Shown here piece after piece: positions 50,604 to 55,266 of a stretch of DNA of 64,000 nucleotides. The stretch is taken from the IMG/VR virus record IMGVR_UViG_3300028394_000042; one strand, written 5' to 3'. Every line of letters starts with the position of its first letter. Position 1 is the stretch's first letter. A program made the position numbers and the translations under genes. Under the pieces are notes generated by a model. That model worked only from the letters and a program-made list of their open reading frames with translations. It ran no database searches and was not told the DNA's origin. Source of the DNA: a virus.

Positions 50604-50927
50604 TCACTTACCCGACAGCGCCATAAAAAGGTGCAACATGAACCGAACAAACACGACCAGCCACGCCAATGCGCCGCTAATAGCTAAAAAAACGACTACG
50701 CTCGTGGCCGTGAGCGCCGGAAACAGCTTGTGTACGGGGATAGTCTTGAACAGCTGCCACGCCCGAATGTAACCCAGTGGGCCGGCTGGCTTAGTTGGCT
50801 CTGGCTCTGGTACTGGTGTTGGGCCGGGAGCTGGTTTTGGCTTGGGCTTAAACCAGTCTACAAGTCCGCCAAGAATAGGCCGCACTGGCTTGCCGTCTTT
50901 TTCAGTGTCAACCATTTTTGCGCCCAC
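50604..50927 (-). CDS. Pro-rich membrane protein, about 107 aa
   Basis: KPKPKPAPGPTP linker and C-terminal transmembrane segment. Confidence 0.65.
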   Translation of the reverse strand: MGAKMVDTEKDGKPVRPILGGLVDWFKPKPKPAPGPTPVPEPEPTKPAGPLGYIRAWQLFKTIPVHKLFPALTATSVVVFLAISGALAWLVVFVRFMLHLFMALSGK

Positions 50928-52443
50928 CTAAGTTTTTCAATGAGTCAAAGATATCATTACCGTACATTTGCGTCGCTTTGTCCAGCGGGTTCATCTGCGG
51001 CAGCGTTCCGTGTACAGCAGCCAACGCCATTTGATATCTATACTGCGGGTCGAGCTGCGTGCGGTACATGTGCATGTTCTGCCGCGAGTTCAAAATGAAA
51101 TCGCCGCGCTGCTTTGCTTTTGACAAGTGATCCATGACGTTGGCAAACACTGGCTTAGCGTTGTCGTACACAAGCGGGTGCTGGAAGTTCATCAGATTTG
51201 CAAACTGCTGTGCGTACACGCTGCCGTCTGTGTTGGGCACATTGAAAGCCGCTTTTACGCCGCTTGGAATAGTCGTCGGGTCAGTGTGGAACCGGAACTT
51301 GGTCGGCATGTGCGTAATGCCCTTGAACTTGGGCGCGTCGTCGTCGATCTGCCAGTCTTGCGGCGACTGCGACATAAGCTTCCTGAGAATCTGCGCCTTG
51401 TGGCCGTAACGCTTGTTGTCAGAGTGATTCTTGGCCGCGAGCAATTCTTCGATGATCTGCGCGCGGGAAAGCTTCTCTATGAGCTTTTCTTTTGCGTAGT
51501 AGGCGGGGTCACTGGACAGGTGATCCTTGGCAATTTCTTTGGCGATTTGATCATTGTCTGTGTGTTCGTGTTCATCGGCTTGTCCTTCTGCGAGGGCTTT
51601 TGAAGAAAAATCCCGGTCGGGAACATTATCAGCTTTTCCACCATGTAACAGGTCTTTTGTTACCGTGCGGGAAAGTGTGTTAGAGTGCTGTATTTCAGCA
51701 GTAGATGCAGCTTTACACCTGCCACAGCCCGTTTTTTTGCATACGCATGTTTCAGGGCACGTGCACGGGCCAGAACAACCGCACTCGTATGTTGTGTCTG
51801 TAGCCGCGGCTGCTTTCAGCTCGCCACGACTGGAACTCTGCATAGGCATACCGTCATCGGTGGCGTTGCCCTTGCTTATGCCGTTGGGCTGCAGCACGTT
51901 TTTACGGCGCGCGGCAATTGTGATGTGAAACTGGTGGTCGCCGTTAGGCATGGGTGACAGGCCGTAGCTCTTGCGCAGCGCTGTAAGCCCGGGCGCAGTC
52001 ACGGTCATCACCCAGACTTTGCTGACGTTGCCAGCTTTGGGCGTGAACTCTTCAAGCTTGCCCAGTGAGTAATGAAACGTGTGGCCGCGCTCGTTGATCT
52101 TGTCTGGGCCAATCTTTTCAACTTCTTCGGCAGACATGACAGAGATATGCGCGTTCATTACGTCTGGCTTGTCGTCGTCGAGGCCCCACACGCCTTTTGT
52201 GGGAAGCTCTGCGCCCGGGGCTGTCATGGCGTCAAACAAGCCACGGACAAACGCATTGGGGACAGACAAGAGCAGCCAATTGGACTTAGACAGATACAGC
52301 CGGCCTGAAAACGCGTGGTTTGTGCTGGCCTGCTTGTCGCCCCGGTACAGCCAACCGAAGGCGTTGCCGGCTACATAGGCCGGATGCTCTCTGAGATATG
52401 CCGGATCCCATGCCAAGGGATCGAGGGCTGATAGGCTGTCCAT
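50908..52443 (-). CDS. Multidomain protein: 2H phosphoesterase, Cys-rich segment and DUF5661-like domain
   Basis: Two HxS/T motifs (AHISV, FHITI); CGCSGPCTCPETCVC..GCGRC; EHEHTDN.QIAKEIAKDHL..DPAYY. Confidence 0.7.
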   Translation of the reverse strand: MDSLSALDPLAWDPAYLREHPAYVAGNAFGWLYRGDKQASTNHAFSGRLYLSKSNWLLLSVPNAFVRGLFDAMTAPGAELPTKGVWGLDDDKPDVMNAHISVMSAEEVEKIGPDKINERGHTFHYSLGKLEEFTPKAGNVSKVWVMTVTAPGLTALRKSYGLSPMPNGDHQFHITIAARRKNVLQPNGISKGNATDDGMPMQSSSRGELKAAAATDTTYECGCSGPCTCPETCVCKKTGCGRCKAASTAEIQHSNTLSRTVTKDLLHGGKADNVPDRDFSSKALAEGQADEHEHTDNDQIAKEIAKDHLSSDPAYYAKEKLIEKLSRAQIIEELLAAKNHSDNKRYGHKAQILRKLMSQSPQDWQIDDDAPKFKGITHMPTKFRFHTDPTTIPSGVKAAFNVPNTDGSVYAQQFANLMNFQHPLVYDNAKPVFANVMDHLSKAKQRGDFILNSRQNMHMYRTQLDPQYRYQMALAAVHGTLPQMNPLDKATQMYGNDIFDSLKNLGGRKNG

Positions 52444-52470: not shown

Positions 52471-52632
52471 CTAGTTTGGCGCGGCGTACGCTGGTTTGGC
52501 ATTACCGCTTACCTGTGCGTCATGCTGTTTGTGGGCCGCAGCCGCAAACGCTGAAAACAACAGCATGGCGCAGCAGAACAGGGACGCCACCCACGCCATG
52601 ACGCTCAATTGCTTACGAATCGTGATGCTCAT
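52471..52632 (-). CDS. Small single-transmembrane protein overlapping the holin
   Basis: MSITIRKQ followed by a hydrophobic helix. Confidence 0.5.
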   Translation of the reverse strand: MSITIRKQLSVMAWVASLFCCAMLLFSAFAAAAHKQHDAQVSGNAKPAYAAPN

Positions 52633-52969
52633 GCTTTGGCTCCTCGATGTGTTCGCGTTCATGGACAATCGTGACTTTGATGCCTGAGCCAGCCAGTAAA
52701 GATATCAATAAGTCAGTCAACGTTGAACCACCCATGCCAGCGAGTACGCAAACGCCAATCAAGCCATATACGTTCTCGGCTTTCCTGTAGTTTTGGTACC
52801 AAAGCAACGCAATCGCTAACCCCATGAACCCGGCGTTAAGCATGGCGCTGACTACAGCTAGTTTAGAGAGTTTCTTGGCAAACCGCAAAAGCGTAGCCAG
52901 ACCCGCAAACGCAGCTGCGCCAAACGCGCTGACGAACACACCCAGCGATGTAGAAAGCTCGTCGCTCAT
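52613..52969 (-). CDS. Holin-like protein with three transmembrane helices, 118 aa
   Basis: Three hydrophobic helices, LAGMGG, charged C-terminal tail; TATAAT upstream at 53015-53020. Confidence 0.6.
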   Translation of the reverse strand: MSDELSTSLGVFVSAFGAAAFAGLATLLRFAKKLSKLAVVSAMLNAGFMGLAIALLWYQNYRKAENVYGLIGVCVLAGMGGSTLTDLLISLLAGSGIKVTIVHEREHIEEPKHEHHDS

Positions 52970-53021
52970 GGTATTTAACTTCTTTGCTACGCTGTGTTTA
53001 CGTCAACCAGATTAATTATAC

Positions 53022-53247
53022 AAATGCACCAAAAGCCCTTGCGATCCCCTTCCGCAAGTCCAGTTTCAACCGAAGTCGAAAATCCACGGCGACTTACAAA
53101 GGCGCTAAGCGCCTCGTGTGGCATTCGCCGTTCCTCCACCCGCGCGCTCGACAAAATCTGACCGCGGAACCTGTAAAGCCATTGGCATCCCTGCCGCAGA
53201 CAATACGCCTAACCAGCCGGCCACCACGACTAACTTTTGGTGCACTT
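53022..53247 (-). ncRNA. Putative structured non-coding RNA, about 226 nt, family not recognised
   Basis: 15-bp closing helix with G-U pairs on the minus strand, cUUCGg and GNRA tetraloops, potential 7-bp pseudoknot, extended -10 TGCTAAACT just upstream. Confidence 0.7.
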
Positions 53248-53327
53248 CAAGTTTAGCAAATTCATACCCCACTACAGAGTACGAACCCAGACCAGCAAAT
53301 TGTCAAAGAACACTGCGAATTACGCGC

Positions 53328-53786
53328 CTAAATATAGCGTGCCGGCTCATTGCTGCACAGGCCAGCCGGCTCGTGGTCGAAAAGCCAGTTGCTGTCAGCC
53401 ATTTCGGGGAACACAGCGATAGAACGCGGGGCTAACTCACGAGGCGGCAGGGTCCAGATAAACTGCGAGCTGGTCAGGGTCAGCGGCGACTCTGTAGCTA
53501 GCACAGCATGCGCGCCAATGTTGCACAGCGCGTCTAGCGTTTCGGCGTTCTGGCACCGGCTCCACACGCGATGCTTTGAAAAGAAACTGGGTGGAACTGG
53601 TGTAAAACCGCTGGCGTGCGGCAAAAGAAAACCGCCACTCCTGAACACGACGTCCACGCATATGTGCCAGCCAGCTTTGAGCGCTTCTTGGAGATATTTC
53701 AGCGTGTTTTCCTGCTCTGGAATGCGCCCGTTGATGTTGCCCAAGTGTGAGATGATAATCCCGTCAAACCTCTGATTTTGTGCCAT
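53328..53786 (-). CDS. Short glycerophosphodiester-phosphodiesterase (GDPD)-like protein, degenerate
   Basis: IISHLGN..G...ENT..Y...AL..G..ICVDV. Start moved to ATG 53786. Confidence 0.6.
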   Translation of the reverse strand: MAQNQRFDGIIISHLGNINGRIPEQENTLKYLQEALKAGWHICVDVVFRSGGFLLPHASGFTPVPPSFFSKHRVWSRCQNAETLDALCNIGAHAVLATESPLTLTSSQFIWTLPPRELAPRSIAVFPEMADSNWLFDHEPAGLCSNEPARYI

Positions 53787-53803
53787 ACAACCGTCCTTGT
53801 TGC

Positions 53804-53864
53804 AAATAAAAACGCCCGGTGGTTCCCTCGCTTTCATCCTTGTCGGAGAGCGCTGGGCCGGGCG
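53804..53864 (-). terminator. Extended stem-loop plus U-tract; terminator or small RNA
   Basis: CGCCCGG...CCGGGCG followed by TTTTTATTT. Confidence 0.6.
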
Positions 53865-53918: not shown

Positions 53919-54929
53919 TCAGAGAATTTTGGCCGCAATCAGACAGCCGCGGACAACAGCGTGCAGCGGGTCATTGGCGTGCCGAACTTCTTTCACAGCC
54001 AATGGAAAACCGTTCTCTTCCAGCTTGACTTTGAACATCTCGACAAAGCCCTTGGCCTGCGTTGTGCCGCCTGCCAAAGAGATCACAAGGGGCGCCGTGA
54101 ACTTGGGCAAAGACTTGTGCCCCTTGAGCGCCGCAGCCAGTTGCTTGACCGTGTAGTCAATAAGCCGTTCGTAGTAGGCGCTCACAGCTGACAGCACCGG
54201 ATTGTCGTTCTGCTCGCCAATCACAAACGTGCCGTGCTCTTTCTCAGCTTGAACTACCGAATCTGACTCGGCAGTTGCGACAGCGGTCATGCGGTCGATC
54301 CAGTCGCCCGAGCGTGTCGTCGAGAACAGCACTGTGGGCTCGCCGTTGAGCATTACGCACACGTTGACCATACCTGCGCCCCACGAGAGCCCAATGCCCG
54401 TGTAGTCGTCATTTTCGAGCTCTGAGTAGCACAGCGCTTCAGCCTCGTTGATAGCGCGCGGGCTGTACCCGACGCCGGTTAAGATAGCTTTAACAGTGTC
54501 CTCGTGGTAGCCAACGTCAAAGTCTTCGTCGCCCTTGTCTACAGGCTGCGCTGGAATACAGAACACGATCTTCTCGTCGGGCTCTGTGGCTTGGCCGGCT
54601 ACTTCCTGCAGAATGAAAGCCAGCACGCGCTTGGCGTCTTTCTCTTTGGGAGAAACTACGCCGCGGTACATCGGGCGCTTGGCCGAGTCATTGCGCTCTA
54701 CAGCTTTCTCGATAGCGTCTTGGCCCAGCAAAATAAAGCTTCCGTCGCTGTCTTTGACGAAGACTTTACCAGTCAGGCCCTTTTCGATCATCTTCGTGGC
54801 CACAGGCGTCGTGGGTTTGATCACGTAGAAAGCATCGCGGAAGTCTTTGTAGGCGATGTTCGCGTTGTTCTCAGTGCTGTCTTGGGCCAGCACGATAAAA
54901 GAAGTACCGACGTCTAAACCTTTGGCCAT
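53919..54929 (-). CDS. Actin-fold ATPase (MreB/MamK/ParM superfamily), about 336 aa
   Basis: GLDVGTS (phosphate 1), INEAEA (connect 1), SWGAGMVN (phosphate 2), LAGGT (adenosine), DPLHAVVRG (connect 2). Confidence 0.88.
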   Translation of the reverse strand: MAKGLDVGTSFIVLAQDSTENNANIAYKDFRDAFYVIKPTTPVATKMIEKGLTGKVFVKDSDGSFILLGQDAIEKAVERNDSAKRPMYRGVVSPKEKDAKRVLAFILQEVAGQATEPDEKIVFCIPAQPVDKGDEDFDVGYHEDTVKAILTGVGYSPRAINEAEALCYSELENDDYTGIGLSWGAGMVNVCVMLNGEPTVLFSTTRSGDWIDRMTAVATAESDSVVQAEKEHGTFVIGEQNDNPVLSAVSAYYERLIDYTVKQLAAALKGHKSLPKFTAPLVISLAGGTTQAKGFVEMFKVKLEENGFPLAVKEVRHANDPLHAVVRGCLIAAKIL

Positions 54930-54930
54930 G

Positions 54931-55266
54931 TCATTTTCCTTTGAGCTGCGCAAGTTTCGAGATCGAAGAAGTTATATCATCCTGTGTTTCTGTCGTTTTG
55001 CCAAGTGAAACAGGCTGGGTTTTTGCCATAGACGCGGTGCTTATCTTCGAGACAAACGTGCGGTCGTCTATCGATATCTGGTTAGCTGGCGCTGTAACGA
55101 CAGGCGCAGTTCGCTCTGGTTCGCGGGCTTTGCCGTCTGTTAGCCAACTTGACGCTGGTTGTACAGGATGCGAGCAAGCCACGTCGAGCCGGCCGATGAC
55201 GTAGCCTACAATCCCGCCGACGAGCAACAACAGAAAGCTGGTCGCGTACTGGTTGTACAGCTCCAT
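54931..55266 (-). CDS. Single-transmembrane protein coupled to the actin gene, about 111 aa
   Basis: FLLLLVGGIVGYVIG; C-terminal amphipathic ISKLAQLKGK. Confidence 0.7.
   Translation of the reverse strand: MELYNQYATSFLLLLVGGIVGYVIGRLDVACSHPVQPASSWLTDGKAREPERTAPVVTAPANQISIDDRTFVSKISTASMAKTQPVSLGKTTETQDDITSSISKLAQLKGK

Follow-up and report, generated by a model that had tools for sequence, protein, structure and literature searches.

An undescribed pseudoknotted RNA family heads a holin-like gene in a clade of uncultured giant lake phages and displays a candidate CsrA-type site

The window analyzed here, a stretch of 64,000 nucleotides, is part of an IMG/VR virus record of 120 kb whose completeness is estimated at 59%. 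Its relatives are contigs of about 200 kb sampled from lakes and fresh water, and terminal repeats are present in some of them. The locus under study lies on the minus strand within a 358-nt intergenic gap, flanked by a 169-aa open reading frame and a gene for a 118-aa membrane protein (Table 1). The label "GDPD-like", given to the upstream ORF when it was read from sequence only, found no backing in Pfam, NCBIfam or PHROG. The 118-aa protein has a charged tail rich in His and Glu, contains three hydrophobic segments and had no match in the same three collections. Its language-model neighbors were clusters partly annotated as Phage_holin_3 (score 0.90), so that the earlier name "holin" keeps the support of look-alikes and lacks that of any protein family; the gene is referred to as holin-like.

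Several features of the surrounding genes were recorded. Directly 3′ of the holin-like gene is a 42-codon ORF (52471-52599, minus strand) with a hydrophobic, Cys-containing N-terminus (MAWVASLFCCAMLLFSAFAAAA...), whose product may be a partner of the holin-like protein, either a small membrane protein or a lipoprotein. The next large gene in the holin-like operon (50908-52443, minus strand) encodes a 511-aa protein in which a 2H "Swiss Army Knife" phosphoesterase domain is combined with a DUF5661-like module; the literature on this 2H context yielded nothing usable. Two genes upstream of the RNA, an actin-fold protein (53919-54953, minus strand) matched Pfam Volactin at 212 bits, with weak matches to salactin and MamK, and represents a phage actin-like ATPase. 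One homologue of the 118-aa protein (P0019) comes from a 203-kb contig that NCBI lists under a Sphingorhabdus sp. assembly; as this contig is probably of phage origin and was binned with a MAG, it gives a weak hint of the host at best.

Table 1. Positions of the RNA, its structural elements and associated genes and sites. Coordinates refer to the window unless another contig is named.
Feature	Position	Strand	Remarks
Structured RNA	53022..53247	(-)	seven helices, P1-P7 (P5a inside P5), and one pseudoknot
P1	5′ strand 53232..53247 with 53022-53037	(-)	compensatory changes in 13/15 pairs
P2 hairpin, AGUCG-UGGUGGC-CGGCU	53215..53231	(-)	3/5 pairs covary
J2/3, GGUUAG(G)	53208..53214	(-)	unpaired, nearly invariant (alignment columns)
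P3	53178..53201	(-)	lower stem variable, tip fixed as GC-AGGGAU-GC; CsrA-type candidate site CAGGGAUG at 53186-53193
P4, CCGYGGUCAGAU...GUCG..CRCGG	53140..53167	(-)	conserved internal loops; 99% of cells paired; 3 pairs covary, 5 invariant
J4/5, invariant GGNGG (GGAGG in the window copy)	53132..53139	(-)	
P5, ACGGCGA/UCGCCGU	53125-53131 with 53086-53092	(-)	6/7 pairs covary; encloses GCCAC and P5a
P5a hairpin, AGGCGC/GCGCCU	53099-53115	(-)	4/5 pairs covary
P6 hairpin, UUCG loop	53063..53082	(-)	sequence and loop variable; 8/8 pairs covary
P7 hairpin, CUUGCG/CGCAAG	53038..53058	(-)	4/7 pairs covary; loop contains invariant GGGGAUC
-10-like element TGCTAAACT	53250..53258	(-)	transcription start predicted at P1 foot
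Spacer, P1 to start codon	52970..53021	(-)	52 nt in the window; poorly conserved, weak Shine-Dalgarno
Upstream gene	53328-53837		169-aa ORF; sole assignment a PHROG of unknown function
Downstream gene	52613..52969	(-)	118-aa three-helix membrane protein, holin-like; always directly 3′ of the RNA
csrA	G000:C1:29235-29456, outside the window; L082:1423-1644	(-)	73 aa; Pfam CsrA 69.7 bits
A[ACU]GGA[GC] hexaloops	~20398, 25395, 26002, 34458, 38544, 48704, 55908, 62566	(-)	in the window

As a single sequence the 226-nt RNA was predicted to fold with a free energy of -94.9 kcal/mol (z = -3.4 against dinucleotide shuffles), and single-sequence folds of two relatives had the same architecture. Searches with both flanking proteins retrieved 80 related loci, all of which had kept the intergenic sequence, at 67-80% identity. 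RNAalifold applied to 39 distinct copies returned 64 pairs, of which 47 had compensatory changes. With the pseudoknot included, 97.4% of the 2,683 pair cells in the 39 distinct relatives were standard pairs; when the 3′ partners were slid by 1-3 columns as a control, the proportion of paired cells was only 36-44%. The sequence-only reading had proposed a structured RNA and had made covariation its test. Indeed, all of its helices were present where it had placed them and were backed by comparison with the relatives, and changes on both sides were found in 50 of 69 pairs among the 39 relatives, with none of 500 shuffles attaining these values. These data confirm that 53022-53247 is a real, intricately folded RNA. 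A scan for further helices or pseudoknots, in which all alignment columns of 56 sequences were paired against all and strictly Watson-Crick pairs were admitted, recovered little beyond the known helices, and the few isolated column pairs outside the structure look like the product of shared ancestry. A protein-coding reading of the stretch was rejected: its open frames were not conserved and 630 of 703 alignment gaps were 1-2 nt in length.

The closing helix of 15 bp seen in the initial reading is P1, which closes a junction from which P2, P3, P4, P5 (with P5a), P6 and P7 radiate. The P2 stem is formed by AGUCG (53227-53231) and CGGCU (53215-53219). Its loop bases GUGGC (53220-53224) anneal to GCCAC (53118-53122) in the internal loop of P5 to create the pseudoknot, in which three of five pairs covary and 100% of cells are paired. 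A pseudoknot had been anticipated, with ACGGCGA and UCGCCGU as its strands; these form the nested helix P5, and the crossing element is the P2 loop. Of the long helix UCGUGGUGGC/GCCACACGA proposed earlier, the outer half was without support; P2 is a local hairpin. The AGGCGC hairpin, the UUCG hairpin and the CUUGCG/CGCAAG helix correspond to P5a, P6 and P7, all of which covary.

The unpaired elements found to be invariant were GGUUAG in J2/3, GGNGG in J4/5, parts of the P4 internal loops including GUCAGAU, GAAAGU in P5, the P3 tip and the GGGGAUC of P7. The middle base of J4/5 was A in 34 sequences, U in 14, C in 4 and G in 3, and because this base varies J4/5 does not qualify as a conserved GGA site or as a Shine-Dalgarno sequence; it was rejected both as a Shine-Dalgarno mimic and as a third CsrA/GGA site. 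P6 and lower P3, which vary freely, look like spacers. P1 stacked on P2 could form a helix of about 20 bp, a potential target of a double-strand RNase.

A search of the whole window against Rfam 15 at gathering scores gave no matches. At E values up to 10, the interval 52900-53400 gave only a 10-bit chance match to an archaeal snoRNA outside the RNA, and the Csr/Rsm models of Rfam did not match the RNA. The initial failure to assign a known family was thus borne out. No tRNA or tmRNA was found in the window by ARAGORN, and no similar sequence in cultured-phage DNA by blastn. The strict P2 motif had no match in 185,579 prokaryote genomes (one per species); 107 matches to a loose three-block pattern in prokaryote genomes were all rejected as chance, none of them passing the nhmmer profile of the family. 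The RNA was carried by about 95 IMG/VR contigs of one clade, with exactly one copy in each of 168 fetched loci, and an nhmmer search of the 120-kb genome, with E values up to 10 allowed, found no second copy. No description of such an RNA family was found in the literature. The RNA constitutes an undescribed family, its fold is new, and all its carriers are uncultured giant lake phages of a single clade; in kind, as a structured leader or protein-binding regulatory RNA, it belongs to what is already known.

The relation of the RNA to its neighbors was consistent across the clade. Among loci retrieved by the RNA motif only, the 118-aa gene followed the RNA directly in all 74 with enough DNA, and the upstream 169-aa gene was replaced in about 25 of the 74. 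In relatives the spacer between P1 and the start codon was 16-60 nt, in many only 16-25 nt. No conserved terminator, that is, no conserved hairpin with a U-tract, followed the RNA; P7 with its U-run was flagged as a terminator in the window copy and was rejected, being unconserved, with the U-run part of the P1 strand. No conserved second promoter was found between the RNA and the 118-aa gene. The short spacer, the absence of a terminator or separate promoter, the 74/74 linkage and the variable upstream gene together support the identity of the RNA as the 5′ leader of the 118-aa gene. Promoter, RNA and membrane-protein gene are one module, of which the RNA is physically the 5′ leader.

A TAnAAT-type hexamer, usually preceded by TG, occupied the same aligned position just 5′ of P1 in the relatives, and the predicted start of transcription is at the foot of P1. 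This conservation of position upheld the earlier description of the RNA as promoter-led. The -10 motif was rejected as a recurrent phage promoter, with 3 matches in the window against 4.6 expected. The window copy also contains a perfect TGTATAAT at 53015-53022 on the minus strand, immediately 3′ of P1, where the TATAAT had been noted. This element is private to the window and absent from the relatives; it was rejected as a second promoter for the next gene, and the restart of transcription once proposed there is not a feature of the family. The Shine-Dalgarno sequence of the 118-aa gene is weak; most genes of the phage have a good one.

In two lake metatranscriptomes from different studies, one contig each was 100% identical to the RNA, at 53045-53234 (depth 24.6) and 53027-53208 (depth 6), both inside the predicted RNA. 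The same RNA libraries had no contigs on the flanking genes, though a DNA run covers them; being assembled contigs, these data are blind to ends, strand and level and may include DNA carry-over, and a stretch without contig cover is no proof against transcription. They provide a weak hint of a discrete, stable RNA species near the predicted boundaries that accumulates well above the body of the mRNA. The idea of a stand-alone RNA, put forward from the sequence, is favored by these RNA-confined contigs and opposed by the synthesis of the RNA as the leader of a gene, by the unbroken linkage and by the missing terminator. Nothing pointed to the ribozyme or packaging RNA that had been suggested with it.

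No conserved complement to the invariant G-rich loops was found in the spacer or the next 420 nt, which leaves these loops free for a factor acting in trans. The spacer likewise did not pair with the body of the RNA. In the window and two relatives the RNA domain folded alike with or without downstream sequence, and no expression platform (terminator/anti-terminator or Shine-Dalgarno-sequestering helix) was found. Of the properties looked for in a riboswitch, the RNA has the conserved aptamer-like fold, the invariant unpaired bases and the position as a 5′ leader, and lacks the expression platform.

At the tip of P3, the sequence CA[G/U]GGA[U/C]G was present in 55 of 56 unique sequences. The first G of the loop was U in 11 of the 56; the C, A, GGA and G were fixed. 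The tip had originally been read as GGCA-GGGA-UGCC with a GNRA loop. It is better read as GC-AGGGAU-GC, and a GNRA tetraloop is disfavored by the U found in those 11 sequences at the first position, where G is required. The SELEX consensus of CsrA is RUACARGGAUGU, which typically forms a six-base loop with a closing C-G pair (PMC7652899). The bases that are invariant in the P3 tip coincide with those fixed in this consensus (PMC7652899), and the tip forms an A-R-G-G-A-U hexaloop with C-G closure. The sole family member to depart from the pattern was an IMG/VR relative (L180) in which the tip is CAUGAUG, with one G of the GGA missing; this reflects a sequencing error or a natural variant that has lost the site. 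The GGGGAUC in the loop of P7 may be a second GGA site of non-canonical type. The distances from the conserved GGA loops to the start codon, which lies downstream, are 70 nt and 215 nt, and the spacer contains no conserved GGA. The arrangement looked for in a CsrA-repressed leader, at least two GGA sites with one over the Shine-Dalgarno or start codon, was not found. Nor was that of a CsrA sponge, at least five GGA in repeated stem-loops on an independent transcript with its own terminator: only the GGA of P3 and P7 were invariant, and the other GGA of the window copy were unconserved.

The phages encode a CsrA of their own. The gene also occurs as one copy, roughly 70 kb from the RNA, in each of the 9 near-complete relatives, that is, in 9/9 RNA-bearing relatives at least 90% complete. 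The co-occurrence of RNA and csrA is not independent evidence, because all carriers belong to one clade. The protein aligned with solved CsrA proteins, including the equivalents of L2, L4, R6 and Arg44; L2, L4, R6 and the critical arginine are important CsrA residues. Distant csrA genes were present in cultured Pseudomonas and Vibrio phages. In this genome, 7 hairpins with an ANGGAN hexaloop and at least three Watson-Crick pairs were located over ribosome-binding sites, against about 1.3 expected; in the loci of relatives 24 had stems of 5 bp or more, where about 0.4 were expected, and a slid control gave none. The A[ACU]GGA[GC] hexaloops contain the Shine-Dalgarno sequence, 7-10 nt before the start codons of several genes. 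Several of the stems in the window are 5-7 bp, for example CACUGA-AUGGAG-UCAGUG before a 206-aa HNH-like ORF, which is conserved in relatives. This enrichment over ribosome-binding sites suggests that a CsrA-type translational regulon appears to be present in these phages.

With its CsrA-type site and a csrA gene in the same phages, the RNA is probably a viral regulator of gene expression. It is tentatively proposed that it serves the holin-like transcript as a 5′ domain for the docking of CsrA, a reading that is quite possible though short of probable. The RNA would be an autonomous 5′-terminal domain of that transcript, made from its own host-type -10 promoter, and its seven helices and pseudoknot would make up a rigid scaffold that displays the invariant CsrA-type hexaloop at the P3 tip together with the GGGGAUC loop of P7. 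A dimer of phage-encoded CsrA, or of host CsrA, would dock on the P3 and P7 loops, and occupancy of P3, possibly also of P7, would set the fate of the transcript. One predicted fate is a change in stability and translation of the holin-like gene, which is poorly equipped with a Shine-Dalgarno; the other is the release of a stable RNA-protein particle of roughly 220 nt. Both the binding of CsrA and any regulatory output are predictions from sequence. Most CsrA-repressed leaders need a site that overlaps the Shine-Dalgarno or start codon, and the proposal is disfavored by the finding that neither candidate site does so. The threefold variation in spacer length likewise disfavors tight structural coupling to the ribosome-binding site. 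The proposal is further weakened by the P7 loop, which is not a canonical ANGGAN, by the one sequence in 56 without the P3 GGA, by an ornate, pseudoknotted fold of 226 nt that far exceeds the needs of CsrA docking, and by the lack of an expression platform. A bolder version, considered somewhat unlikely, is a self-contained viral Csr system in which the phage CsrA and the late and other genes with ANGGAN hairpins would be joined by the RNA as a dedicated high-affinity partner. Heading the holin-like gene and setting the level of free CsrA, the RNA would then act with the protein as a timer of late translation and lysis.

Two alternatives retain part of this picture. The RNA might be a stable small RNA that acts in trans to titrate CsrA, a miniature CsrB/RsmZ, relieving repression of the phage genes with ANGGAN hairpins, with the position before the holin-like gene incidental or secondary. 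Its own promoter, the RNA contigs of two metatranscriptomes confined to 53027-53234 with none on the flanking genes, and candidate sites clear of the ribosome-binding site of the next gene would fit such a sponge, and the many candidate CsrA-type hairpins elsewhere in the genome would need an antagonist. Known sponges, however, have many GGA loops, and here the conserved ones amount to one canonical and one odd, J4/5 being GGNGG; moreover, no terminator precedes the next gene, linkage to one downstream gene in 74/74 loci is unexpected for a free-standing sponge, and the complex fold would go unexplained. A sponge is judged unlikely. Equally improbable is a cis-acting sensor of a ligand or protein other than CsrA, a new riboswitch or operator in which a ligand pocket or tertiary contacts would be built from the invariant G-rich loops and junctions, the likeness to CsrA sites being due to chance. 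The size of the RNA, its multi-helix junction, pseudoknot and many invariant unpaired bases are typical of aptamer domains, and its fixed position at the head of one operon suits this reading; the author's estimate of the probability that 226 nt match the six fixed bases of CANGGANG somewhere by chance is about 0.05, which is only moderately unlikely. Against it, P1 is very stable at 12-15 bp, whereas most riboswitches have a short P1 stabilized by ligand; no terminator, anti-terminator or partner sequestering the Shine-Dalgarno was found, the length of the spacer is not conserved, and the invariance of the P3 tip fits CsrA better than it fits a GNRA contact.

An RNA that cleaves itself or is processed out of the operon transcript, or that has a structural, packaging or scaffold role, is very improbable. 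The RNA contigs do end inside the P1 boundaries on both sides, but contig ends are not RNA ends. Most relatives have an A/U-rich single strand after P1, and the P1-on-P2 stack of about 20 bp could, by inference, be recognized by a double-strand RNase; no conserved candidate cleavage site was identified, however, no Rfam ribozyme family matched even at E up to 10, and nothing ties the RNA to packaging genes.

The proposed CsrA-docking leader has counterparts among known systems. The flhDC leader is shielded from RNase E by two CsrA sites at its extreme 5′ end, and in the moaA leader CsrA binds inside a structured riboswitch aptamer (PMC7652899). Like these CsrA/RsmE-bound leaders, the phage RNA has a SELEX-matching GGA hexaloop at the very 5′ end of an mRNA and a csrA gene in the genome, and, as in moaA, its candidate site lies inside a larger conserved fold. 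It differs from them in that the pair is phage-encoded, no site lies over the Shine-Dalgarno, one site is canonical, the fold matches no known aptamer and the site is predicted. With the sponges CsrB, CsrC and RsmX/Y/Z it shares a promoter, apparent abundance and stability, and GGA in hairpin loops. Those RNAs carry many GGA repeats on simple stem-loops and their own terminator, whereas the phage RNA, built on a complex pseudoknotted core, conserves two GGA loops, lacks a terminator and always adjoins one gene. As an ornate, strongly covarying orphan fold from uncultured or phage sequence it resembles the raiA motif, HEARO, OLE, ROOL and GOLLD; it differs in that no Rfam model of these families matches it and in that it is found in one lake-phage clade before a single downstream gene, and it is smaller than ROOL, GOLLD and OLE. 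The csrA of phage PTXU04 is gp28, knock-down of which results in small plaques; by the account of this 2025 paper, it was the first test of the role of a phage csrA, and no RNA partner is named there (PMC11879866). The lake phages likewise encode a CsrA homologue and, unlike PTXU04, have a candidate partner RNA and candidate ribosome-binding-site targets in the same genome.

Large, strongly covarying folds outside known families are rare, and several earlier ones were new riboswitches, ribozymes or RNA-protein machines. At about 225 nt the RNA is compact, which suits it to probing and cryo-EM, and its position ahead of a holin-like gene, in phages that encode csrA and carry CsrA-type hairpins, suggests a function that can be tested. 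With a cognate phage RNA the role of phage csrA could be approached directly, and the RNA would illustrate a way in which a giant phage might schedule translation and lysis post-transcriptionally. If the viral Csr system is true, this would be the first time that an RNA partner is known for a phage CsrA, and the fold of that RNA would be new as well.
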